DNA from: Deltaproteobacteria bacterium
Lineage (GTDB): Bacteria; UBA10199; SPLOWO2-01-44-7
Assembly: GCA_023265595.1 (NCBI GenBank)
Contig: JAHFSU010000002.1
Coordinates: forward strand, 21,105 to 85,104
Direction: 5' to 3'
Length of the DNA stretch: 64,000 bases
Part shown: positions 11,372-57,777 of the stretch, in pieces
How the letters are laid out: each line of letters starts with the position of its first letter
Position numbering within the stretch: the stretch's first letter is position 1
Notes under the pieces: generated by a model
What the model was told of the DNA's origin: nothing
The model's input: the letters and a program-made list of their open reading frames with translations, nothing else
Database searches by the model: none
Position numbers and translations under genes: made by a program

Positions 11372-11444
11372 GGGCCCTTAGCTCAGCGGTTAGAGCTGCC
11401 GGCTCATAACCGGTCGGTCCCAGGTTCGAATCCTGGAGGGCCCA
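11372..11444 (+). tRNA. tRNA-Met (anticodon CAT; elongator type or Ile-lysidine type, not initiator)
   Basis: Manual cloverleaf. Acceptor stem GGGCCCT/AGGGCCC with discriminator A. Anticodon loop CTCATAA. T-arm GGTTCGAATCC. The G1-C72 pair argues against an initiator. CCA is not encoded. Confidence 0.85.
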
Positions 11445-11446
11445 CA

Positions 11447-12400
11447 TTGAAAGTGCCACCTTCCAAAAGCATTACGCACAGAGCTCTTTTTTGCGCAGCG
11501 CTTGCCAAAGGAGAGAGTAGAATTATCGATCCGTCAAAATGCGACGACACACTGGCGAGTGTTCAGGTCCTTTCTCAACTCGGCATTTCCATTATCATGA
11601 AAGAAGAGGAATGGATCGTCCGCGGCGGCGCTTTCAAAAAACCGTCGATACCGCTTGATTGCAACGAATCGGGAACAACTTTTCGATTTGTGACAGCCCT
11701 TGCCGATGTTTTGAAAATTTCATGCGAAATAACCGGCAAACCTTTCTTGATGCAACGCCCGCAACGGCCGGATCCTAAAATCAGTTCGCAATATCTCTCC
11801 GGTCTGTTGTTGGTTGACCCATCCACTGCCATACCGAAGGAGGCCGTTTCCAAACCTTATATTTTTCTTACGATGGAGATGAAAAAAAAATTTGAGAAGG
11901 GCCCCACGGAAGTGACCATTGAAGGCTGTTGGTCTTCTGCCGCTTTTCTGATCGCCTTCGGCACATTGATCCAACCGATCCGATTGGAAGGTTTAAATCG
12001 GGAAAGTCTTCAGGGAGATAAAAAAATCGTGACGATCTTAAAAGAGATGGGGGCTGACATCGAATGGCAAAACAAGACACTTGTGGTAAAACCGTCGCCG
12101 CTCAAAGCGGTCTCATGGGATTTAACCGACACTCCCGATTTATACCCGATCCTTTCTGTTGTGGCCCGTTTTGCCAAAGGCCAATGTCATTTTAGAGGAA
12201 TCGAAAGATTGCGCTTTAAGGAATCAAACCGTTTTGAAGCAATGCAGGAAATCTCAAATGCGGTTGACTCAAAGGACCACCGGGTTATCATGGCGGCGGC
12301 TGTTTGGGGCAAAGCTACGGGGCAAAAGCTGAAGTTCAAATATCCCGAAGCGGTGGCCAAATCGTGGCCGAAGTTTTGGGATGTCCTTAAAAAGATATGA
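11447..12400 (+). CDS. aroA: Compact 3-phosphoshikimate 1-carboxyvinyltransferase (EPSP synthase) homologue, 317 aa, TTG start
   Basis: The KSITHRA motif (the AroA KS(I/V)SNRA Lys22 loop), SSQYLSGLLL, RFKESNRFEAM, DHRVIMAA and VAKSWP match AroA catalytic regions. It is ~110 aa shorter than typical AroA and begins 3 nt after the tRNA. Confidence 0.6.
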   Translation: MKVPPSKSITHRALFCAALAKGESRIIDPSKCDDTLASVQVLSQLGISIIMKEEEWIVRGGAFKKPSIPLDCNESGTTFRFVTALADVLKISCEITGKPFLMQRPQRPDPKISSQYLSGLLLVDPSTAIPKEAVSKPYIFLTMEMKKKFEKGPTEVTIEGCWSSAAFLIAFGTLIQPIRLEGLNRESLQGDKKIVTILKEMGADIEWQNKTLVVKPSPLKAVSWDLTDTPDLYPILSVVARFAKGQCHFRGIERLRFKESNRFEAMQEISNAVDSKDHRVIMAAAVWGKATGQKLKFKYPEAVAKSWPKFWDVLKKI

Positions 12401-16475: not shown

Positions 16476-16553
16476 CCCTCTCCCCTTGTGCCAGCCCGCC
16501 GGTTGTTTGGCGGGGGAGAGGGTGGCCGCAGGCCGGGTGAGGGGGTAAGGGTT
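16476..16553. repeat. GC-rich nested-hairpin repeat element (CCCTCTCCCC…CCCGCC-N-GGCGGG…GGGGAGAGGG…GGGTAAGGG). Member of a dispersed family; an inverted copy sits at 56446-56508.
   Basis: Seen directly. Shares TCCCTCTCCC-TTG, GCCCGCCGGTTGT(T/G)TGGCGGGGG and GGGTAAGGG blocks with the reverse complement of 56446-56508. Confidence 0.55.
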
Positions 16554-16554
16554 T

Positions 16555-17745
16555 TCAGAAAAGGCGGTATTTTTTCCCGACTTTTTCGAAGCCGGTCAAG
16601 GCTTTGTCGAGATGGGCAGGGGTGTGGGCGGCGGAAATTTGAACGCGGATGCGCGCCTTATCTTTGGGAACAACCGGATAGGAAAAGCCGATGACATAAA
16701 TTCCTTCGTCTAATAAATCGTGGGCGATATTTTGCGCGAGTTTGGCATCGCCCAACATGACGGGGACAATCGGGTGGGTCCCTTCCAAAATTTTAAAACC
16801 GAGCGCTTTCATTTTGGAACGAAAATATTTTGTATTTTCTTCGAGACGGTCTCGCAATGTGGTCGACTTTTCGAGAAGTTCAAAAACTTTGAGCGAGGCG
16901 GCGACAACAACAGGCGCCACGGTATTGGAAAAAAGATAGGGACGCGAACGCTGACGCAAAAATTCGATGATCTCTTTTCTACCAACGGTGAAGCCGCCGG
17001 TGGCGCCTCCAAGGGCCTTGCCCAAAGTCGATGTCAAAACATCAATGCGCCCCATGACGCCGCAATGTTCCGGCGTACCGCGGCCTGTCTTGCCAATAAA
17101 GCCGGTCGCGTGCGAATCATCGACCATCACGAGCGCCTCATATTTTTCAGCGAGGTCGCAAATGGAATCGAGCTTGGCGACAGTTCCATCCATCGAAAAA
17201 ACGCCGTCGGTCGCAATCATTTTGAGCCTCGCCCCTTTGTCATGCGCCTCTTTGAGTTTGGCATCCAGATCGGCCATGTCCGAATTATTGTAGCGATAGC
17301 GCTGGGCCTTGCACAGACGGACGCCATCGATAATCGAGGCATGATTCAATGCATCGCTGATGATTGCGTCTTCTTCGCCGAGTAGAGTTTCAAAAAGCCC
17401 TCCATTCGCATCAAAACAAGAAGAATATAAAATCGCATCGTCCATTTTTAAAAAATGGGCGATTTCTTTCTCCAAATTTTTATGGAGGTCAGTCGTGCCG
17501 CAGATAAAACGAACCGAAGACATGCCGAAGCCCCGTTCGTCCAGCGATTTTTTTGCCGCCGCGATCAATTCGGGATTGTCGGCCAACCCCAGATAATTAT
17601 TGGCGCAAAAATTGATCACATCCCCTTTGGAGACACGGATATCGGCCCGTTGCGGCGATAAAATGATTCGCTCTTCTTTATACAAACCGGCGTCCCGAAT
17701 TTCCTGAAGCTGATCCGTAAGAATTTTTTGGAGTTTGCCGTACAT
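16555..17745 (-). CDS. kbl: 2-amino-3-ketobutyrate CoA ligase (glycine C-acetyltransferase)
   Basis: 396 aa, collinear with E. coli Kbl over its full length (…[20 protein letters not shown]…VRFICGT…[15 protein letters not shown]…[17 protein letters not shown]…). Confidence 0.9.
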
Positions 17746-19813: not shown

Positions 19814-19836
19814 CATATGGTAGCTGCTACCATATG
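19814..19836. promoter_or_regulatory. Perfect 23-bp palindrome CATATGGTAGC-T-GCTACCATATG, 11 nt upstream of the radical SAM gene start
   Basis: Seen directly. 11-bp arms are exact reverse complements. It overlaps the expected RBS/5'UTR and follows a 245-bp AT-rich intergenic region. Confidence 0.4.
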
Positions 19837-19846
19837 CCACTCTGAC

Positions 19847-20809
19847 ATGATGAAGCGCTATCGGGACCTGTCGGGCTGGCTTAAAGAAAAATATGGGTCA
19901 AAAGTTTTCAAGGTCAGTTTAACCGCCGCCACGACTTGTCCCAATTTAGACGGCAGTCTCGCAACGGGTGGGTGTACTTTTTGCAACGATGCGGCCTATT
20001 CCCCTCTCGCCTTGGCGAAAAACAGGAGACAAAAATCGATTCCCGAACAACTGGCCCAAGGGATGGAGTATGTCAAAAGACGTCATGCCACATCCAAATT
20101 CATCGCTTATTTTCAGAGCTTTACAAGCACCTATGGCGACAAAGAAAAATTGATGGCCAAATTCAGAGAAAGTCTCGATCACCCCGACGTCGTCGGCTTT
20201 GCCCTCTCCACCCGCCCCGATTGCATCGACAAAGATTGGGCCAAAGCCCTTTCCCAATTGGCCGACGGAAAATTGTGTTGGATTGAATTAGGACTGCAAA
20301 GCGCCAACGATCTTATTCTCGCCAAAATCAATCGGTGGCACACCCGATGGCAATTTGGGGAGGCCTTGAAAATTCTTAAAGATCAGAACATCGCCGTCTG
20401 CGCCCATGTTGTTTTGGGTTTGCCGCTCGAGACAAGGCCTGATGTTTTGGAAACGGCCCAATATCTGGCAACACAACCGATCGATGGAATCAAAATTCAC
20501 AATCTCCATGTTGTGAAGGGGACAGCGCTCGCACAAGAATACCAACGGGGTAAATATCAACCCCTTTCCCTGACAACTTTTACCGAATGGGCTGTCGATT
20601 TTTTGGAACAGACCCCGCCCCAGCTTTTGATTCATCGGCTTAATGCCCATGCCCCGAGGCAATTAACTTTGGCCCCCGACTGGTCGGTCAACAAATTGGC
20701 TGTCTTTCGGGCGGTTGAAAAGGAATTGATAAAAAGGGAGAGCTGGCAGGGAAAAGGACTAGGCTTTGCTAGAACCTATCTCATAAATCTGACGAAAGCG
20801 AAATTTTGA
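19847..20809 (+). CDS. Radical SAM protein, TIGR01212 family
   Basis: N-terminal CPNLDGSLATGGCTFCN (the CxxxxxxxGGCxFC cluster of the TIGR01212 family). Start chosen at the MMKRYRDLS Met; the track ORF starts 30 nt earlier inside the palindrome. Confidence 0.8.
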   Translation: MMKRYRDLSGWLKEKYGSKVFKVSLTAATTCPNLDGSLATGGCTFCNDAAYSPLALAKNRRQKSIPEQLAQGMEYVKRRHATSKFIAYFQSFTSTYGDKEKLMAKFRESLDHPDVVGFALSTRPDCIDKDWAKALSQLADGKLCWIELGLQSANDLILAKINRWHTRWQFGEALKILKDQNIAVCAHVVLGLPLETRPDVLETAQYLATQPIDGIKIHNLHVVKGTALAQEYQRGKYQPLSLTTFTEWAVDFLEQTPPQLLIHRLNAHAPRQLTLAPDWSVNKLAVFRAVEKELIKRESWQGKGLGFARTYLINLTKAKF

Positions 20810-20851
20810 TTTTTCGAGCGAGACGAGAAGGATGAGCAAAAAGCCCGGAGG

Positions 20852-20880
20852 CGTAGCCATAGCTACGTTGAGGATTTTTT
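20852..20880 (+). terminator. Weak putative intrinsic terminator (6-bp stem CGTAGC-CATA-GCTACG, spacer, T6) after the radical SAM gene
   Basis: Seen directly. Short stem with the T-run 7 nt away, hence low confidence. Confidence 0.3.
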
Positions 20881-20946
20881 GCGAAATCCGACGAAGTCGC
20901 AGCCGAAAAAGCAAAATTGCAGCCGGAACGATTTATGAGATAGGTT

Positions 20947-21660
20947 CTAGGGATTTATTGGCGGTGGAATCGGTTCTCGATCAAACAATCGCCTGAGTTC
21001 TACAACGGTCTCCCTTAGAAAAAATTTTGTTTTCCCTTCAGCCATTTCGGAGAGACCATCGACCATAAATTGATAATGGGGTCTCAAAAAGAGCCTCGGC
21101 CTAAAAAAGGATAGAACGCGCAAAAATTCAGCCGCCTTTTCATCCTTTTTCAGCACCGCTTCTTTAATCAGTTGGGAAATCGCCCCAATCGAACAAATGG
21201 ATATCGTATTCGATGCAATCCGATAGAGATCTCGATCTATTTCGCCACTCAAAAACAAATAGGCGGCGCTAAAATCTGGATTAATCGTATTTATAAAACG
21301 AAAGTCGCTCACATCCCTTTGCCCCACTGTAAAAGCGACGGCTTTTGCAAAAACCGTTTTTTCAATCAAGCACAAATGGGCTGCTAAAGTTCTTGCGTCG
21401 AGACAAAAACCGTCATCGGTGCGATCCTGAAATCTTCTTAAAGAAGCAACGTCTCTTTGAACCGATCTTCCACACCCGGCTACATCAAGATGGGAAGTAA
21501 AATAATCGATCGAACGAGAATCCCAGTTCCGAATCGTGGAGCCACTTTCCAATGCCCGCGAAAGTCCGCTCGGCCCCGCAGAAATGGCGCCCCATAAGGA
21601 GATGCTGCCTATCTGTGCAATCATTGTTTCTCTATAAGTCGGAAGCGACGTTTTATTCAA
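20947..21660 (-). CDS. Hypothetical protein, last gene of the peptide ABC transporter operon
   Basis: 237 aa. 4-nt overlap with the ABC ATPase stop. No recognisable motifs. Confidence 0.45.
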
Positions 21661-25161: not shown

Positions 25162-26759
25162 TCTTTCATATCGAGCCCCACAGGATATTCCTTCACATTT
25201 TTGAAACGTTTGTCGCGCGCCAAAAGATCGGGCCGTGCAAACATAAAACAGTAGGGTTGATCTTCATACAAAAGTCGGTGGATCTTTTTGTAAATTTCCG
25301 ATCTTTTCTTCTCATCAAACTCTTTTCCCCCTTCTTCAATGAGGCGATCCACTTCCGCGTTGGCATAACTGACAAAATTGGATCCCCCCTTCGACTGGGA
25401 AGAGTGAAATGTTTGATACATGTCCTCAATGCCAACACCACGGCCCCATGCCGCCATGTAAGCATCAAAATCGTGCTCATTCAGAAGTCGAAAAAGGGTG
25501 ATTGCCTCCAGACGGCGTAATTCAATGGCAATGCCGACTTTTGCAAAATTTTGCTGCAAAATGGGGGTGAGCTGTTCATAAAATTGCTGGCCGGCGGAAA
25601 AAAGGAGGGTGAACCGGAGAGGGACTCCGTTTTTATCACGCAGCCCGTCTCCATCGTGATCGATCCATTCGGCTTCATTGAGCAACTGTTGCGCCCTCTC
25701 CAAATCATACTCGATAGGTTTCAGGTTCTTATCATAATTGTTTCCCAACGGATTATAAGGTCCCGTGACCGGGAAATAGAGACGGAAAAGGATTTTTTCA
25801 TTGATGATATTCCGATTGACCAGATGCGCCAAGGCCAAACGGACCCTTTTATCTTGGAAATAAGGTCTCTTAAGATTCCATCCGATATAGTTATAAGTCG
25901 CAAATGGGGTGAAAAACCAGTGTTTGATAAAATGTTCTTCAAATTTTTTGCTTTCGGTCTGTCTGGCCCATTGAAGCGGTGTCAAATCGATCAGATCCAA
26001 GTCTCCCTTTTTGAAAAGCTGGAAGGCCGTTTCCCCATCCGGCACCATTTTAAAAATAATTTTTTTAATGGGATAGGCGGGACGCCAATAATTCGGATTT
26101 TTTTTCAGAACAATCCTTTGTCCGGTTTTCCATTCCTGAAAAAGAAAGGGGCCGGTCCCTATCGGTTGTCTTCCGGCCGGATGGGTATTGAAATCGCCCC
26201 CTGTATCAAAAACATGTTTTGGGAGAACGGTCAGCAAACCCAAGGTATACAATGCCCCGGCGTAAGGACGGCGATAAGTAAAGCGAACGGTATGGGCATC
26301 CAATTTTTCAGCCTTTACAACATCCCGATAATAATTTCTCAAAGGGGCGGCATCGACCTTAGGATCCTGAATTTTTTCGTAAGTATAGAGGACATCATCA
26401 GCGGTAAACGGTTTGCCGTCCTGCCAGCGAATATCCTCCCTCAAAAAAAAGGTGTATTGCAATTTATCCGGCGAAACGGTCCAGCGTGTTGCCAAAAGCG
26501 GCTTTGGTTTCAAGGTTTCATTATCGAGTTCAAAAAGATTTTCATAAATATATCCGGCAACTATGGAAGCATAAGCACTGCCTGCCGTCACCGGATTAAG
26601 CGTATCAGGATCGGTAGGTAAATTTTGGACAACGGCATAGGGGTCCTTGGGGACTTTGAAGGAACAGCCCGCTAAAAAAAAGGAGAGAAGGTAAATGAAT
26701 GCGATCCCCGCTTTCGCGGAGAGGACACTATTCCCATTGTTTGATTTTCCCTTCCACAC
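25143..26759 (-). CDS. ABC transporter substrate-binding lipoprotein (family 5, peptide/nickel-type)
   Basis: 538 aa. Lipoprotein signal …FLAGC. Size and position are typical of OppA/DppA. Confidence 0.8.
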   Translation of the reverse strand: MWKGKSNNGNSVLSAKAGIAFIYLLSFFLAGCSFKVPKDPYAVVQNLPTDPDTLNPVTAGSAYASIVAGYIYENLFELDNETLKPKPLLATRWTVSPDKLQYTFFLREDIRWQDGKPFTADDVLYTYEKIQDPKVDAAPLRNYYRDVVKAEKLDAHTVRFTYRRPYAGALYTLGLLTVLPKHVFDTGGDFNTHPAGRQPIGTGPFLFQEWKTGQRIVLKKNPNYWRPAYPIKKIIFKMVPDGETAFQLFKKGDLDLIDLTPLQWARQTESKKFEEHFIKHWFFTPFATYNYIGWNLKRPYFQDKRVRLALAHLVNRNIINEKILFRLYFPVTGPYNPLGNNYDKNLKPIEYDLERAQQLLNEAEWIDHDGDGLRDKNGVPLRFTLLFSAGQQFYEQLTPILQQNFAKVGIAIELRRLEAITLFRLLNEHDFDAYMAAWGRGVGIEDMYQTFHSSQSKGGSNFVSYANAEVDRLIEEGGKEFDEKKRSEIYKKIHRLLYEDQPYCFMFARPDLLARDKRFKNVKEYPVGLDMKEWVVEE

Positions 26760-38052: not shown

Positions 38053-38116
38053 TAAGGGGGCCGAAGTTGCGTGCCACCATTTCCAGAATCCGTCACTTAA
38101 ATTTTTCTTACTTTTT

Positions 38117-38146
38117 CCCCTCCCTTGATGGGAGGGGGAATTTTTG
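38117..38146. repeat. GC-rich hairpin (CCCCTCCC-TTGAT-GGGAGGGG) followed by T5; variant of the dispersed hairpin family
   Basis: Seen directly. Shares the CCCTTGATGG core with the 56484-56506 copy. Confidence 0.45.
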
Positions 38147-38165: not shown

Positions 38166-38369
38166 CTACATTTCCAACCCGGCTTGTTTTAAAATGGATT
38201 TCAAAAGGCAGGGTCCGATAATTTTTTCACTATGGACAGGAACAGTAACCTTTCGTCCTGTTGCGGGATTTACAAAATGTTGATGGGAACCCATGGAATC
38301 ATAAAGATTAGCGGTAGATTTCTTTTCGATGCCCCACTTTTTCAATCGTGACGGTTTGAGAGGCATCAT
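38166..38369 (-). CDS. hicA: HicA-family toxin homologue (orphan; no hicB found)
   Basis: …SMGSHQHFVNPATGRKVTVPVHSEKIIGPCLLKSILKQAGL matches the HicA consensus (GSHh.F.hP…VtVP.H…gTLksIlKQAGL). Its N-terminus overlaps the 3' end of the RelE-like gene by ~60 nt in another frame. There is no room for hicB downstream. Confidence 0.5.
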   Translation of the reverse strand: MMPLKPSRLKKWGIEKKSTANLYDSMGSHQHFVNPATGRKVTVPVHSEKIIGPCLLKSILKQAGLEM

Positions 38370-38565
38370 CGATAAGATAAACAACACGATAATCACCCTG
38401 TCTGACACGCCAATATGCGTCCCCTTTCAATTTTTCTGCACCTGGCGGTCTTGGATCAAGGGTTAACTGACGGATTTTCATCACCAGTCGTTTTCGATCT
38501 TCTTTGGGGATTGGTTTGAAATCCTTTTCAGCACTTCTCTTGATGATAAGATTATAAGAGGCCAT
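38308..38565 (-). CDS. RelE/ParE-family type II toxin
   Basis: 85 aa with the C-terminal RelE-like block …YRVVYLIDDASQTVTIEKVGHRKEIY. Overlaps the upstream antitoxin by 14 nt. Confidence 0.7.
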   Translation of the reverse strand: MASYNLIIKRSAEKDFKPIPKEDRKRLVMKIRQLTLDPRPPGAEKLKGDAYWRVRQGDYRVVYLIDDASQTVTIEKVGHRKEIYR

Positions 38566-38782
38566 CTTTTTTCATCTGCCCGACAAAGGCCTCGAAGTCG
38601 CGTGTTTTTTCCTCTTTGCGAAGACGGATCGCTTCCAAATCAATGGCATCCTCACGAAGTGCCGCACGAACCGCCTCGTTGACAACTTCAGAAATGGAGC
38701 TGTCATTTTGCACCGCTTTCAACTTTAAAGCTTTATGAAGCTCCGGCTCCAAATAAACCGTAGCTCGCTTGGGATCGCCCAT
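38552..38782 (-). CDS. Ribbon-helix-helix (CopG/ParD-like) antitoxin
   Basis: 76 aa. N-terminal TVYLEPELHKALKLKAVQNDSSISEVVNEAVRAAL is an RHH β-α-α pattern. A palindromic ATAACGTTAT lies in its promoter (38808-38817). Confidence 0.6.
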   Translation of the reverse strand: MGDPKRATVYLEPELHKALKLKAVQNDSSISEVVNEAVRAALREDAIDLEAIRLRKEEKTRDFEAFVGQMKKDGLL

Positions 38783-38843
38783 AAAACCTCCTCATCGTTA
38801 AAGCATCATAACGTTATGACGTTAAAATGTCAAACGTGAAATG

Positions 38844-38925
38844 TGCTCCCGGCAGGATTTGAACCTGCAACCCTTTCGGGACGGCGTTCTAAGCGCCGCG
38901 CGTATGCCAATTCCGCCACAGGAGC
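38844..38925 (-). tRNA. tRNA-Leu (anticodon TAG), type II with a long variable arm
   Basis: Manual fold of the reverse complement. Acceptor GCTCCTG/CGGGAGC + A. Anticodon stem CGGCG/CGCCG with loop CTTAGAA. Variable arm CCCGAAAGGG. T-arm GCAGG-TTCAAAT-CCTGC. 82 nt. Confidence 0.85.
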
Positions 38926-41489: not shown

Positions 41490-44400
41490 ATGGGTGATGC
41501 AAAAATAAAAAACGATTCCCTTTTTAATGAGGGAATTCTTCCTCCTTCTAAAGACGTAGACCGCACCTGTATCGATTACGAAACCATCGAAGAGGTACCG
41601 GTGATTGAAGTAGAAGGTGGCCTTGAAATAGATAAAGATAATTTTGAAGATGTTCGTCGTGTCTGGCTGGGTTATGAAGATGGGAAACCTTCCGTAAAAT
41701 ATTATGAGCCGGGTGAAGGGGAGAGGGCAATACAAGAATCGTTGGACAAACTAAAGCAAGAGGGGAAAGATCCGGAAAATTCTCCCGGCCCCCACCATAT
41801 GTCCGGTTTTCCGGCAGATCAAAAGGGGAACCTTCTTATCCAAATGCTCCAACAAAAAACGTGTCGATATACGGCAAGAGAAAAGGATGAGGAGGCTTCT
41901 TTATATAGGGAGAAAGATGTTCGTAAAAAGCAACACCATAAACTGGGCCGTGCGGAAAAGCCTGATAAAAACGGAAAATTTAAAATCTATTTCTATAAAG
42001 AGAGCCCCAAGCTGGATGTCCCTTGCCAAACCATGGGATTCGTCCCCTTAACGGAAGTTAGAGGGCGGGCCGATATCATTCGCCTCATTAAAGCCGGTGA
42101 GTTGGTACCGGGTACCGATTACTGTATCGGCGGAATCGAAAAAAATCCGAGACTCCTGTTTAATCCAACTCGTGTAGAAGGCTATGTCGATCCTATCGTT
42201 ATCCCTAATATTCTTAAATCGGGTCTCTTTTCAAACGAGATGGAAAAAAGGGTCAAAGCCGACATTGAACGAGCAACAAATACAGAGAGAGAATCTATTT
42301 TGCGGCAGAAAGAATCAGCCGATTTACAAAAACATCAGGTTGAATCACAGCCGTGGTTAATGAGTATTAACACATTCGTAGCCTCTCTGATTGGTGTTGG
42401 CCCCATGTTATGGATCTCCAGAAGACAGATGCAAATGATGAGGGAACAGTTGGGACTTCAAAAAGAACAGATGGGAATTATCCGGGAACAGATGGAAGGG
42501 GGAAAGAAGGAGCCTATTCTCCCTAAACTCAGAGATATAACGCAAGAAGCAAGAGAAGGAAAAATCAAACCGGTCTCGCCAAGACTGTGGCCTGCCATCA
42601 AACAACTTGCCATTAATTTGAGCAAAGGAAAATTGGCAAACCCGACCTTGCTCGCGGAAAATGGAGTTGGCAAATCGGCCGCTGTTGAAGGTTTAGCCTT
42701 GGCTATTGTCAACGGCATTCTTCCTGATGGAACACCCTTACCGGATCATTTGAAAGGAAAAAGAATTTTAGAGGTAAGCGCCGGAGAACAGTTTTCAGCC
42801 ACCAAGGGAGGAGAATATCGCGGAGTCATGGAGGCCAAATTCAGGCAGTTCTTGGAAGAGGTCAAAGCCGCCAAAGATGTCATCCCCTTTATTGATGAAG
42901 TTCATGAATTGGCCAAAGCGGGACAAACAGAGGGTTCAGCAGGTATTGCACAGATGTTCAAAGCAGGGACAGCCCGAACCAATGAGTTTCAATTTATCGG
43001 AGCAACAACCAACGAAGAATTTGCTAGACATTTTGCGGGGGACAAGGCGCTTCAAAGCCGTATGCCACCCGTTGAGGTAGCAACTCCGGATGCCAAAGGG
43101 GCCATAGCTGATCTACGGTTCACGCGCGAGGCCAATGAAGCCCACTACGGAAGAAAAATTCCGGACGCAACAATTGATGAAATAGTGAGACTTTCAGAAC
43201 CGGCCACTTATACCAACTTTCCTAGAAAGGCATTTGATCTGCTGGAAACCGTTGCCAAGCAGATGGATATTGAAGGAGACACAAGTGGCACCATTATACC
43301 GGAAAGAGTTCGGGCTTATGTTGAATGGAAAAGTCTGGATGCCGTAGCCAATGCCACTTCCGAAGCATGGCGTGAGGCGAATCGTCCCAAACTGTCTCTA
43401 CAAGAGATTCGTGTGATACAGGAAAGAAGTATCGGAGAGACTTTGCAAGTATTGGTTCGGGATGCAGAAAAATTGTCCGACCTTGTATTAGAAAAAATTG
43501 TTACTACCCTCACGAATTCATGGGAGGCTCTCAAACCCGAGGCAAGAGCCGGGCTCACTCCCCCCGGAACAGCCGATTTTGCCATTCCACAACGTTTTGT
43601 CGAAGTTTCGTTAAGCGGCATCAAAGATCATTTAGGCATCCAATTAATTCCTCAACCTGTCGTTCCAGCTCCGCCAATTATTTCAGGTGGTGGAGGGACG
43701 GGAGGCCCTGCCCCAACAGGAGGAACATCCGGCACCGGCGGCACACCGCCAACCGGAGGTGGAGCACCTACCGGAACCCCTTCGCCGGCAAACCCAACAT
43801 CTTCTCCGGCACCGGCTTCCGGAGCAACCGCTTCGGCAACGGCTAGAGTGATGGAGACAACAACGACCTCCCCTGAAGCTCAAGCTCTGAGAGCATTAGA
43901 AAAAAGTACCACCGCATTAGAGGTGATATTGGGTTCAAAAGTAATGCCCCATATTGATGTCCGCGTTCCGGTCGGATTGGCAGCAACGACAGGAACAGCT
44001 GCGGCCTTTCATATTGCAGATTATTTTGGTGTTCCTTCCTATCTGACAGGCAGTGCCGCCTTGGGAGCGCTTGCGTGGACTGTTCGCAGTAATCCGGTGG
44101 CAGGCGTTTGCACTGCCGTAGTTCATGCCGGATATTTTATGGCCGGTGCCTATCCTGCCACAGCGGGACTTGCCGACTTGCGAGGCGAGGAGAAACCGTC
44201 TCTCACAACACATCTGGTTGGTGATTTAGCAGGGGGTGTCTCGTGGACTATTATTAATAAAGCCAATGGTGGCGGCGGTCCCGAAAAAATGCTTATTGCC
44301 CAAGCTGAACAGGCCGTCATCGGTTTAAGAATGTATGGTAAAGAAATTGCGGCCGGAGCTTCTGCAACCGCCACAACAATGGCGGCCTATGCCAGAAATG

Positions 44401-45184: not shown

Positions 45185-46345
45185 TTACAACACTTCAACC
45201 GATTTTTTACAGGCCTCCAGATTTTTATGGGCTGTCTGCCAAGCAGCGACCTCCGGAAAAACGGAAACATTTTTGACATTTGCAAAGAGTTCCACAGCGG
45301 CTTGGCAGCCTTCCAATTGTAAAACTGTATCGGCTTGCATCAAAAGAGGGCGCGCTTTTTCGTCGAGACGGGTATAAACTTTTTGTAAAAGGTCATTCGC
45401 TTTTGGATTGGGAGAATAGTCGCGGAGAATATTTCGCAAATCATGGCCGATCGCAATGAGATCGGGATTCTTTTTATTTGACCCTTCGACAGGCTCAGGG
45501 TGAGCGGAACTCGGGGTCAAAATGACATCATATTGAGCCAGCTTCGGCTCCAGTTCTTTGTTTAATTTGGCCTCGGCCGCCTGCAAGGCATCCTCAATTT
45601 GTTTATAAAAGGGAGGCTTTAGTTCTTCCGAATTAAAAAGGGCTATGGCTTGTTTCAATTGTTGATAATTGTTGGTTTCTAAAAGTTTTTTGGCTTTGAC
45701 AAATTTTTCTTCAAGCTCCTTTGATGGCCCGTAGTTTTCCTCTTTTTTAAGGGCCTCTTGCAGTGTTGCGGTCATCTTGCCGGCCCGTTCATTGTCAGGC
45801 GATTTTCGTAAAATTGTTTTCAAGGCCAGCAGGGCTTGGGGTGCATCATCTGCTTCCAGAAAAGAGCGGATTTCATCTCCCCCGCTCTCTCCTTTTTTCC
45901 CATCCCCTTTTCCCTCTTCCACAAGGTGAGAGTGAGGCTCCGTAATATACATGAGAGATCGTTCTATTTTCTGCTGCAAAGGGTCCTGACGATTCAGAAT
46001 ATGATTTTGGGCGAGGTCCCAATATTGTTTTGCCTCTGCAAGACGATGCCATTGATAATAGCGAAGCCCATCGCGATAATATCGCGCCGCACGATGCCGC
46101 AATTCTTCCACCAATTCTTTTTTTTCCGCTTCTACCTCGGCAAACAAGGGATCAAAAAAATGGGAGAGGGAATAACTGTAAACGGCGCACCGCCATTCCA
46201 GCCTTTCCTTGTGTTTTCCGGCCAGAGAATAAAATTCGAGCCCCAAAGTTTTGGAGGCAGAGAGGCCCTCTCCCGCGACGAAACGTGGGCTCACAATAAC
46301 GAATAGGAGACTAAGACAAAGTGACCAGAAAACGTTTTTCGCCAT
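45185..46345 (-). CDS. Hypothetical secreted protein at the distal end of the Tad locus; contains an in-ORF copy of the GC-rich hairpin repeat (encoding LVEEGKGDGKK)
   Basis: Start chosen at MAKNVFWSLCLSLLFVIVSPRFVAGEG (signal peptide); the track ORF runs to 46504. Confidence 0.45.
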   Translation of the reverse strand: MAKNVFWSLCLSLLFVIVSPRFVAGEGLSASKTLGLEFYSLAGKHKERLEWRCAVYSYSLSHFFDPLFAEVEAEKKELVEELRHRAARYYRDGLRYYQWHRLAEAKQYWDLAQNHILNRQDPLQQKIERSLMYITEPHSHLVEEGKGDGKKGESGGDEIRSFLEADDAPQALLALKTILRKSPDNERAGKMTATLQEALKKEENYGPSKELEEKFVKAKKLLETNNYQQLKQAIALFNSEELKPPFYKQIEDALQAAEAKLNKELEPKLAQYDVILTPSSAHPEPVEGSNKKNPDLIAIGHDLRNILRDYSPNPKANDLLQKVYTRLDEKARPLLMQADTVLQLEGCQAAVELFANVKNVSVFPEVAAWQTAHKNLEACKKSVEVL

Positions 46346-47039
46346 AATGATTTTCCCAACAGCCGGTCGGATGAGGACTGTCATGGGACAAAACCGCCCT
46401 TGCCTCTTCGGCATCGGGGAAAATGTCCAAAACATGCCCATTTGCCGCCCCTTCTGAACTGGCCAAAATTTTGCCGCTTTCATCAAAACAATAAATTGCC
46501 CCAAGCCCTAGTTTTTTGAGGGATCCGATCCATTCAAAATGCTCCTCTTTTTTTGTTTCACCTTTTTTTTGCAGACGTATTTTTTCGTGCAGAAAAAACC
46601 AGCCCCCTAAACCTAAAAGGGGCGGAAGCAAAAGGGCAAGGCGCAAAAAGAGAAATGGGGGTGAGTCCGGCCGAAATTCCAAAACGACTTTTCCCAGCAT
46701 CTCTTTTTGATCGCTTAAAATAGGTTCTTCAAAAAAGTATTTCCCCTCACCCTTTCCCTCTTCCACAAGGGGAGAGGGAAAACCATAACGGGAAAAGGGG
46801 ACCAAAATTTTTTCCTGCGCATCCAAAATGACGGCATTTTCATTTTCCAAACGGAGCCGTGTCTCCATCTGGTTTTGAAGCGGGTATTGATTCAATGCGG
46901 CGATGTTTTTGACCAACAACCTCCCCTTTTCAAACTCTCTTTGTGAAAAATCGCCCTTCAAAAAATAGAGGGAGAGCCAAATGAAAAAGGCCCAGACCAA
47001 GCAAAATAGAATTACGGAAGTTTTGATATTTTTTTTCAC
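46311..47039 (-). CDS. Hypothetical membrane-anchored protein in the Tad locus; contains the hairpin-repeat-encoded LVEEGKGEGK peptide
   Basis: 242 aa with an N-terminal TM helix. No recognisable family. Confidence 0.4.
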   Translation of the reverse strand: MKKNIKTSVILFCLVWAFFIWLSLYFLKGDFSQREFEKGRLLVKNIAALNQYPLQNQMETRLRLENENAVILDAQEKILVPFSRYGFPSPLVEEGKGEGKYFFEEPILSDQKEMLGKVVLEFRPDSPPFLFLRLALLLPPLLGLGGWFFLHEKIRLQKKGETKKEEHFEWIGSLKKLGLGAIYCFDESGKILASSEGAANGHVLDIFPDAEEARAVLSHDSPHPTGCWENHYGEKRFLVTLS

Positions 47040-56418: not shown

Positions 56419-56445
56419 CACAGTCACTCTACCTCCATTTTTTTT

Positions 56446-56508
56446 CGCCCTTACCCCCCGCCACACAACCGGCGGGCAGGCAACCCTCTTCCATCAAGGG
56501 AGAGGGAG
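56446..56508. repeat. Inverted copy of the GC-rich nested-hairpin repeat (cf. 16476-16553), between ftsZ and mltD; contains the hairpin CCCTCTTCC-ATCAA-GGGAGAGGG
   Basis: Seen directly. The reverse complement aligns with the 16476-16553 element. Confidence 0.55.
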
Positions 56509-57777
56509 TTAATCTGCCTGCTTTCTCAAAAATGTAGGGACATCATACTCGTCTTCCTGAAAGCCTTGCAAGCCAATTTCTTGAATCAGATCCTTAAGCC
56601 GGATCGGTTGTTCTTCCAGCTGTCTTTTGGTGACAACATAGTCCGAAACCTCAACGGTTCCCCCGTCTTCTTTCAAAGCGATTCTCGGTTGGACAGTGAT
56701 TGTCTCCTGAACGGCCGCCTGTTGTTGATTATACGTCGCTGTTTGGCCAAGACCCACCGTCTGGGTGATCTGCTTTGTTGGTTGCGCTTTTCTCCACGGT
56801 ATCTGATTCATCTTCGTCATCGGTTTATCAAAGCCGGTCGCAATAACGGTTACACGAATATCCTCGTTCATTGTATCATCGATCACGGCGCCGAACAAAA
56901 TATTCGCCTCTTCATGGGCCTCTTCTTGAATCAATTTGGAAGCCTCACTGATTTCCTTGAGGGTCATATTCTGGCCGCCGGTTATATTGATGAGAACACC
57001 GGTTGCCCCTTTGATCGACATGTCTTCCAATAAAGGCGAAGAGATGGCACGGGTGGCGGCATCAATTGCCCTGTGCTCCCCGCGGGAGACACCGGTCCCC
57101 ATCAAGGCCAAGCCGGTTTCGCTCATCACGGTTCGGACATCGGCAAAATCGAGATTGATCAGGCCATGAACCGTGATCAAGTCGGATATCCCTTTAACCG
57201 CCTGATAGAGAATCTGGTCGGCTTGTTTGAAGGCATCCAACATCGTAAGATTATCCGACGCCAAGGCGAGCAACTTCTCATTGGGGATGGTGATCAATGT
57301 ATCGACCACCTCTTTCAATTCGGCAACCCCCTGTTCGGCATGTTTTGCCCTCTGTTTTCCTTCAAAAGAAAAAGGCTTTGTGACGACACCGACCGTTAAG
57401 GCCCCCATCTCTTTGGCCAAACGGGCAATCACCGGCGCTCCGCCGGTGCCGGTTCCACCCCCCATGCCGGCGGTGATGAAAACCATATCGGCCCCTTCCA
57501 AAATTTCGGCGATGACCCGTTGGTCTTCCAACGCCGCATTTTTCCCGACATCGGGATTGGCCCCGGCTCCCAACCCTTTAGTCAATTCACGCCCAAGCTG
57601 GACTTTTGTCCCCGCCTTGTTGGCGCGAAGGGCCTGCATGTCGGTATTGGCCACAATAAAATCGACTCCTTCCAAACCGAATGTAATCATTGTATTGATC
57701 GCATTCCCCCCCCCTCCACCGACACCAAAAACTTTAATTCTGGCATTTTGTGCATCATTATCGACAAATTCAAACAT
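56509..57777 (-). CDS. ftsZ: Cell division GTPase FtsZ
   Basis: Tubulin signature GGGTGTG. 422 aa. C-terminal conserved peptide DVPTFLRK. Confidence 0.95.
   Translation of the reverse strand: MFEFVDNDAQNARIKVFGVGGGGGNAINTMITFGLEGVDFIVANTDMQALRANKAGTKVQLGRELTKGLGAGANPDVGKNAALEDQRVIAEILEGADMVFITAGMGGGTGTGGAPVIARLAKEMGALTVGVVTKPFSFEGKQRAKHAEQGVAELKEVVDTLITIPNEKLLALASDNLTMLDAFKQADQILYQAVKGISDLITVHGLINLDFADVRTVMSETGLALMGTGVSRGEHRAIDAATRAISSPLLEDMSIKGATGVLINITGGQNMTLKEISEASKLIQEEAHEEANILFGAVIDDTMNEDIRVTVIATGFDKPMTKMNQIPWRKAQPTKQITQTVGLGQTATYNQQQAAVQETITVQPRIALKEDGGTVEVSDYVVTKRQLEEQPIRLKDLIQEIGLQGFQEDEYDVPTFLRKQAD

Follow-up and report, generated by a model that had tools for sequence, protein, structure and literature searches.

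The stretch at positions 16476 to 16553 carries a GC-rich, self-complementary sequence that recurs elsewhere in the window (the whole 64,000-nt stretch of DNA analyzed here), and two of the recurrences fall inside predicted open reading frames. The question raised by this locus is what kind of element can lie both directly past stop codons and within coding sequence. The window proved to be unremarkable chromosomal DNA from an uncultured bacterium, including aroA/aroC, an Opp transporter, Lon, ClpX, trigger factor, a Tad pilus locus and a dcw cluster ending in ftsZ, with a measured GC content of ∼47%, compared to the ∼50% first attributed to the genome. Features apart from the repeats were also recorded. 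The EPSP synthase (aroA) ORF in the region 11372 to 12400 encodes 317 amino acids compared to the 417 positions of the Pfam model, which it matches in two stretches, and begins 3 nt after a tRNA gene (11372 to 11444); the short aroA could have arisen by internal deletion, have been called from a wrong start or be a pseudogene. Between a convergent radical-SAM gene (19817 to 20809, +) and a 237-aa gene (20947 to 21660, −), a perfect 21-nt inverted repeat (CTAGAACCTATCTCATAAATC / GATTTATGAGATAGGTTCTAG) surrounds 140 nt of imperfectly palindromic sequence (20769 to 20950), its arms overlapping the ends of both genes; it resembles either a small inverted-repeat element or a hairpin of great length.

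The first-pass annotation had described a dispersed repeat family, with two related elements at 16476 to 16553 and, inverted, at 56446 to 56508. The family was borne out, many further copies being found elsewhere, and the sequences were confirmed at all five sites in the window. The elements and their parts are as follows.

16476 to 16553, + strand: element A, a composite triplex-motif repeat with all three arms perfect (0/0 mismatches).
16476 to 16484: C-rich arm of A.
16514 to 16522: first G-rich arm of A.
16535 to 16543: second G-rich arm of A, GGGTGAGGG.
16495 to 16514: H2 hairpin inserted in loop 1 of A (16490 to 16516 with flank).
16524 to 16534: mini-hairpin GGCCGCAGGCC inserted in loop 2 of A.
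16543 to 16551: extra arm of A, GGGTAAGGG.
56446 to 56508, − strand: element B.
56498 to 56506, − strand: C-rich arm of B.
56484 to 56492, − strand: G-rich arm of B, GGAAGAGGG.
56457 to 56476, − strand: H2 hairpin in loop 2 of B.
56448 to 56456, − strand: degenerate third arm of B, GGGTAAGGG.
45900 to 45934, − strand: element C1, a decayed copy in a 386-aa gene, CACTCTCAC-CTTGT-GGAAGAGGG-AAAA-GGGGATGGG.
46744 to 46778, − strand: element C2, a compact three-arm copy in a 242-aa gene, CCCTCTCCC-CTTGT-GGAAGAGGG-AAA-GGGTGAGGG.
38114 to 38140, + strand: hairpin S, CCCCTCCC-TTGAT-GGGAGGGG, with T-runs on the + strand.

Judged by its sequence, the core of these repeats is the known G/C-rich intrastrand triplex motif BoxC/PIT/TMECO and not a plain hairpin. 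The layout is CCCTCTCCC-loop-GGGAGAGGG-loop-GGGTGAGGG, in which a C-rich arm is followed by its G-rich complement and then by a second G-rich arm mirroring the first, and it was the presence of this third arm that allowed the element to be identified. To our knowledge, the motif has been known for ∼30 years without an accepted function or means of spread; earlier work on it is said to include that of Bachellier et al. in the 1990s and that of Hoyne and Maher in 2000. The match to the literature was reached via a full-text search on both arm sequences (Holder et al. 2015, PMC4666352). As published, TMECO follows the pattern CCCTCNCCC-N3-6-GGGNGAGGG-N3-GGGNGAGGG, with one mismatched triplet tolerated, and 23 copies were counted in E. 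coli K-12 and 3610 across 262 proteobacterial genomes (Holder et al. 2015, PMC4666352). The K-12 copies are always intergenic and show no strand bias (PMC4666352).

In the window, the C-rich arm fits CCCTCNCCC in A (16476 to 16484), B (56498 to 56506, −) and C2 (46770 to 46778, −), reading CCCTCTCCC in all three. The first G-rich arm fits GGGNGAGGG exactly in A (GGGAGAGGG) and with one mismatch in B, C1 and C2 (GGAAGAGGG). For the second G-rich arm, scored against GGGNGAGGG by G·G, A·A or T·A triads, GGGTGAGGG gave 0 mismatches in A and 1 in C2, whereas the arm of B (GGGTAAGGG) missed the triad rule by 2 mismatches and that of C1 (GGGGATGGG) also fell outside it. The window therefore holds two full three-arm copies, A (16476 to 16543) and C2 (46744 to 46778), the rest of the set being B with its degenerate third arm, the decayed C1, and S, which is terminator-like and unrelated looking. 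A three-arm scan of the 64-kb window (loops of ≤45 nt, ≤1 mismatch per arm) returned A and C2 only, with 0 matches in 20 shuffles, and the core pattern CCCTCTYCC-N3-12-GGRAGAGGG gave 2 matches (46756 to 46778 and 56484 to 56506) against 0 expected. Read on the strand with the C-rich arm first, the alignment of the copies (A4) yielded the consensus TTCCCTCTCCCCTTGTGGGAGAGGGAnnGGGTGAGGGG.

The published loop rule (3 to 6 nt, then 3 nt) holds for C2 only (5 and 3 nt). The loops of A (29 and 12 nt) and B (5 and ∼27 nt) lie outside it, and the long ones hold self-folding hairpins, so that the repeat appears in the window in a compact form (C2), a decayed form (C1) and a form expanded by loop hairpins (A and B). 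Elsewhere, the published pattern fitted exactly at 8415 to 8449 of the syntenic Tad locus L083 and at 5395 to 5430 of locus L080, compared to one mismatch in C2, and expanded-loop copies with small hairpins were found at L083 14657 to 14709 and in a Longimicrobiaceae MAG (L029, 6799 to 6880).

The window elements thus resemble BoxC/PIT/TMECO in having three arms, in the same order and of near-identical sequence (CCCTCTCCC / GGGAGAGGG / GGGTGAGGG), frequently with one mismatched triplet; they are likewise multicopy and dispersed, without strand bias or terminator features, and their presence or absence varies between relatives. The differences lie in the host, which here is an uncultured groundwater lineage outside the described proteobacterial range, the motif being present in Elusimicrobiota and Gemmatimonadota MAGs as well; in the long loops of A and B (29, 12 and 27 nt), with nested hairpins inside; and in location. 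While A and B are intergenic, like the K-12 copies, C1, C2 and the copy at L083 8415 to 8449 lie in frame within conserved ORFs. The family is real and nonrandom and belongs to a known kind, although it had not been described from this lineage; its variant features are hairpin-expanded loops, a nested second repeat (H2) and in-frame intragenic copies.

The placing of A and B between genes, at gene 3′ ends, was correct. Thus, A lies 3 nt from the stop codon (16555 to 16557) of an aminotransferase gene (16555 to 17745, −), and B lies 2 nt past the ftsZ stop (56509 to 56511) and ends ∼10 nt short of a GGAGG ribosome-binding site, the gene after it being SLT/LysM with a GTG start at 56427. A (on the + strand) and B (read on the − strand) have the same orientation and 28 nt in common at 93%; relative to their upstream genes, they are oppositely oriented. 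A 27-mer, GCCWGCCCGCCGGTTGTKTGGCGGGGG, is identical in both, with 0 matches in 100 shuffles even at 3 mismatches. The longer common flanks reported for the two elements are real as shared sequence but are not mere flank: they belong to a separate repeat, H2, nested in the loops.

H2 is a 27-nt hairpin (GCCWG-CCCGCC-GGTTGTKT-GGCGGG-G) carried by A and B, and in alignment A4 it forms a 24-nt block that stands in loop 1 in A (CCAG-CCCGCCGGTTGTTTGGCGGG) and in loop 2 in B. When 185,579 species genomes were scanned with the pattern CCCGCCGGTTGTNTGGCGGG, 82 stretches were found, including ∼27 in the MAG CAXXGI01, ∼24 in the Elusimicrobia MAG JAHJSU01 and 9 in Elusimicrobia GWA2_51_34; the remainder comprised smaller numbers in other Elusimicrobiota MAGs and singletons across many phyla. 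By our own estimate, ∼4 to 30 matches would be expected by chance for 19 fixed bases in 596 Gb, and since the single matches are near this number, they were not counted as family members. The outer context differs in each multicopy genome: in CAXXGI01, H2 is part of a ∼100-nt element with GTCATTCCCGCGAAAGC ends, and in the Elusimicrobia MAGs it stands behind a TCCGCC...GGCGGA hairpin. In L080, the motif is followed by H2 and then by a G-rich tail, much as in B. H2 can accordingly be considered, from its recurrence in these contexts, a 27-nt repeat in its own right. It appears to be previously undescribed; a literature search with its sequence returned only unrelated primer matches, Rfam at gathering thresholds recognized only tRNAs in the window and 14 H2 loci, and H2 was not found in viral contigs.

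Enterobacterial REP/BIME sequences, which are associated with RAYT transposases, likewise lie at the 3′ ends of genes as short imperfect palindromes rich in GC and are arranged as mosaics of modules, and H2, like their modules, is joined to different outer modules in different genomes. In contrast, the sequence of H2 is unrelated to REP, and it is flanked by GCCWG rather than headed by a GTAG-type tetranucleotide (GCCAG or GCCTG in the window, CAGCCTG or GGCGGA in other genomes). No RAYT (Y1) transposase was found among the 30 window ORFs scanned against Pfam.

Some single H2 loci showed regularities of their own. Six of them (L017, L050, L055, L059, L062 and L065), from Ignavibacteriales, Verrucomicrobiota, Planctomycetota, Chitinophagaceae and others, have CTTG directly upstream of the hairpin, which exceeds chance for true singletons; around these six loci, no larger common element and no Rfam family was found. 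A Desulfatiglandales MAG (L026, ∼3688) carries H2 as a head-to-tail array of 32-nt units (CTTAGACTTTTA + CCCGCCGGTTGTGTGGCGGG) without spacers, and several other single-copy loci show the same short word on both sides, such as TTGGGTATTT in L053 and CGGAG in L030.

The in-frame copies raise a further question, namely, whether the genes that contain them are real. The two host genes are as follows.

46311 to 47039, − strand: gene for a 242-aa membrane protein, downstream of tadC, hosting C2 in a variable loop (residues 88 to 100).
45185 to 46345, − strand: gene for a 386-aa secreted protein, hosting C1 in a variable linker.

C2 encodes PSPLVEEGKGEG, the predicted translation through it including the stretch SPLVEEGKGEGK, and C1 encodes HSHLVEEGKGDG. 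Both are read in the frame of the gene and give the peptide S(H/P)LVEEGKG(D/E)GK in two proteins that are otherwise unrelated. The C2 hairpin remains strong (z of about −3 on both strands), and that of C1 has been lost (z of −0.3/+0.7). The description of 45912 to 45934 and 46756 to 46778 as core-only, in-frame copies with the same peptide held with respect to frame and peptide but not, for 46756 to 46778, with respect to "core-only," as this copy runs on (− strand) into the third arm GGGTGAGGG at 46744 to 46752; 45912 to 45934 has decayed and has lost its fold (z of ∼0). Together with the copy at L083 8415, the three intragenic copies have the same orientation and frame and yield PSP..GEG..GEG-type peptides.

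It had been proposed that both ORFs were over-called and that the element really lies in intergenic DNA, and some observations would fit that proposal: neither ORF has a Pfam domain, the two calls overlap by 35 nt, and a word-indexed protein search with the 242-aa ORF returned only itself. However, an exhaustive HMMER search, which was needed to detect its homologues, found 12 of them, with invariant motifs on either side of the element (alignment A1). For its part, the 386-aa protein has a 46%-identical full-length orthologue in L083 (GCA_030688705.1) and two more distant ones (L084 and L085), all in syntenic Tad loci, and the alignment of its four members (A3) shows conserved sequence flanking the element, with the motif in the linker of two of the four; a related-locus search with a 5-sequence alignment returned 2 loci only. 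The AlphaFold model of the 242-aa protein (mean pLDDT of 78.7) is confident outside the loop, and its sole long stretch with pLDDT below 50, residues 84 to 97, is predicted to form a loop joining two strands, in the same place as residues 88 to 100, which the element encodes. Since both families align in one frame across the element, over-calling is refuted, and we regard it as hardly credible; the other half of the same proposal, a small repeat able to sit in coding sequence, was right. In both families the element fills a variable linker without lengthening the protein. The 35-nt overlap of the gene calls (46311 to 46345) is present likewise in the L083 orthologues (7992 to 8026) and seems to be conserved.

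A second objection is that the likeness within the ORFs reflects a common peptide motif or chance and has nothing to do with the intergenic repeats. Gly/Glu/Lys-rich linkers are indeed common, and 9-mers within one mismatch of GGGAGAGGG are enriched in the window (45 versus 14 expected), which suggests a background of codon usage. C2, however, matches the intergenic copies as DNA, loop and third arm included, and matches the published noncoding motif; the peptide is absent from 11 of the 12 homologues of the 242-aa protein and from two of the four members of the 386-aa family, and a different DNA repeat occupies the same spot in the L083 orthologue. We consider this explanation very improbable. 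Two GGGAGAGGG-like 9-mers, at 41719 and 37131, were rejected as copies and assigned to the coding background, the one at 41719 aligning to PGDVEK in an orthologue.

A comparison of orthologues of both ORFs had been suggested in the first-pass annotation, and it was informative: the presence of the element differs between relatives, in variable linkers, as it does at the ftsZ 3′ site. The states observed are the following.

ftsZ 3′ site, window: motif plus H2 (B).
ftsZ 3′ site, L086: GTCATTCCGGCGAAAGCCGGAATC hairpin plus a lone GGGGTGAGGG.
ftsZ 3′ site, L087: GTCATTGCGAGCG...CTCGCAATGAC element.
ftsZ 3′ site, L089: empty 29-nt spacer.
386-aa linker: decayed C1 in the window; a perfect motif at the same place in the L083 orthologue (TPSPPVGEGWGEG, 8415 to 8449); neither in L084 and L085.
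242-aa linker: C2 in the window; the palindromic repeat GTCATTCCCGCGAAAGCGGGGATGAC (FVIPAKAGMT) in the L083 orthologue; neither in the 11 other homologues.

The closest FtsZ relatives (85 to 88%) are groundwater MAGs with the NCBI label "Deltaproteobacteria bacterium," e.g., RIFCSPLOWO2_12_FULL_44_12. The history of the ftsZ site may be one of three insertions or of an ancestral element that was replaced and once deleted, and with the four FtsZ proteins at roughly equal distances (85 to 88%), either direction is compatible with the data. No target-site duplication was seen by eye when B was compared with the empty L089 site, and a MITE was rejected on that account and on account of the motif having three arms rather than a core with a terminal repeat on either side. 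The window copies B, C1 and C2 have GGAAGAGGG and a TTG(A)TG loop in common, and the two L083 copies have GGGAGAGGG and ATGGGGTGAGGGG instead, so that copies are closer to others of their own genome than to those at corresponding positions in the other. The pattern is in keeping with copying or gene conversion that took place recently within each genome and points to window copies and L083 copies each being related within their own genome.

Other repeats of the sister genomes were noted in the same comparison. They comprise two palindromic GC-rich families, GTCATTCC(C/G)GCGAAAGC(C/G)GGAATC and GTCATTGCGAGCG(A/T)AGCGAAGCAATC...CTCGCAATGAC, with copies at L086 3680 to 3703, L083 7559 to 7582 and 11474 to 11497, and L087 11276 to 11350 and 16684 to 16709; the window has one weak match (26703 to 26726). 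Several are in frame within ORFs, such as ILDSGFRRNDV in a 1041-aa protein of L083, and others at the N terminus of the L087 secretin and where P0014 begins (MKNMSVIPAKAGIH).

Insertion in frame inside unrelated functional genes, with the addition of a fold-compatible peptide, is known from the Rickettsia palindromic elements (Ogata et al. 2000; PMC10969869). Those elements, unlike the ones in the window, measure ∼100 to 150 bp, are confined to Rickettsia (PMC10969869) and lengthen the protein, whereas the inserts described here are of unrelated sequence, are 35 to 40 nt long and replace a linker.

REP hairpins protect mRNA 3′ ends. A REP-like or terminator-like RNA hairpin at gene 3′ ends, stabilizing or ending mRNAs and bearing G·U pairs as the signature of selection on RNA, was accordingly considered. 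The position of A and B, 2 to 3 nt past stop codons, would suit such a role, as would the stability of the hairpins: strong folds, with z values of −3 to −4.5, were obtained with ViennaRNA, which covers Watson-Crick and G·U pairs only, for B (−4.5 on the + strand), 46756 to 46778 (C2, about −3) and 38117 to 38141. The G·U pair, however, is confined to the + strand, whereas the genes lie on the − strand, and in the sense sequence the corresponding pair is a C·A mismatch, which leaves the argument for RNA-level selection unsupported. The reading of the elements as terminator-like fared no better. A, B, C1 and C2 lack a U-tract and were not called on either strand, A and B are oriented oppositely to their upstream genes, and the in-ORF copies cannot act at 3′ ends. 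PIT elements of E. coli have neither promoter nor terminator activity, and purine-motif triplexes have been reported not to form in RNA (PMC4666352). An RNA-level role is thus improbable, and we conclude that the element is neither a terminator nor an RNA element.

Hairpin S alone has the GC-rich stem followed by a T-run of intrinsic (Rho-independent) terminators, and it was the top terminator-like match of the region. In contrast to such terminators, it fits on the + strand only, antisense to both neighboring genes, which are on the − strand. The short variant reported at 38117 to 38141 is indeed a good hairpin (z of −3.8), but with no third arm, no H2 and none of the common flanks, its relatedness is unproven and its membership in the repeat family doubtful. 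Just upstream of S, a ParE toxin/ribbon-helix-helix antitoxin pair (∼38308 to 38925) adjoins a tRNA gene (38844 to 38925, −); the pair is absent from the syntenic locus L083.

Selection could act instead on DNA structure, the triplex arms or G-quadruplex G-runs pausing replication or promoting local variability, and loops accepting only self-folding inserts since the arms have to remain side by side. In A, all three 9-nt arms are still perfect although two hairpins are nested between them, the expanded-loop design recurs in distant lineages (L083 14657 and L029 6799), and the orthologous sites compared above are highly variable; moreover, TMECO in single-stranded form adopts a stable triplex in vitro, and local sequence at TMECO loci is more variable among E. 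coli strains (PMC4666352). On the other hand, the triplex was not seen by in vivo footprinting in E. coli (PMC4666352), C1 has lost its C-rich arm and B its mirror arm, and the arms show no covariation, the G-to-A change in the first G-rich arm common to B, C1 and C2 being a mismatch without a compensatory change, so that nothing here shows selection on triplex or hairpin. A canonical four-tract G-quadruplex motif with short loops occurs in L083 8415 and is absent from C2 and B, and the G-quadruplex reading was dropped. We hold a selected non-B structure to be rather unlikely overall, keeping selection on the triplex open on account of the perfect arms of A, which have survived two nested hairpins.

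A repeat acting at the level of DNA is, in our judgment, the probable explanation of the triplex-motif copies, the nesting of H2, the in-frame linker copies and the local turnover. The element would be a noncoding, nonautonomous repeat; as single-stranded DNA, it is predicted from sequence to form a hairpin against which a third strand lies, and this fold-back structure would drive local gain, loss and replacement. Template switching, gene conversion or an unknown factor in trans may provide the route; no transposase candidate was found among the 30 window ORFs scanned. Copies would persist where harm is small, that is, directly past stop codons and in disordered protein linkers, where translation in the frame used gives a loop rich in Pro, Gly and Glu (PSP..GEG..GEG), and their persistence may well be neutral. 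A bolder proposal is that triplex-motif loops and sites directly after stop codons are preferred landing sites for structure-directed insertion on single-stranded DNA, which we put forward as a speculation with the odds against it. If it were true, H2 in loop 1 or loop 2 would be an indirect in vivo sign of the motif being extruded in folded, single-stranded form, and the three unrelated palindromic families at one site would reflect a common hairpin-targeting mechanism and not independent accidents.

The basic picture of the BoxC/PIT/TMECO family is left unchanged by these findings, whose value lies mostly in correct annotation and in a comparative lead. The motif occurs far outside the Proteobacteria, where it was catalogued, and its loops accept other hairpin repeats while the three arms remain intact. 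It can sit in frame in working genes as a disordered loop, which matters for gene calling and for the interpretation of "PSP..GEG" peptides in metagenome-derived protein sets, and sister genomes with different repeats at the same sites offer a natural system in which repeat gain and replacement can be studied.
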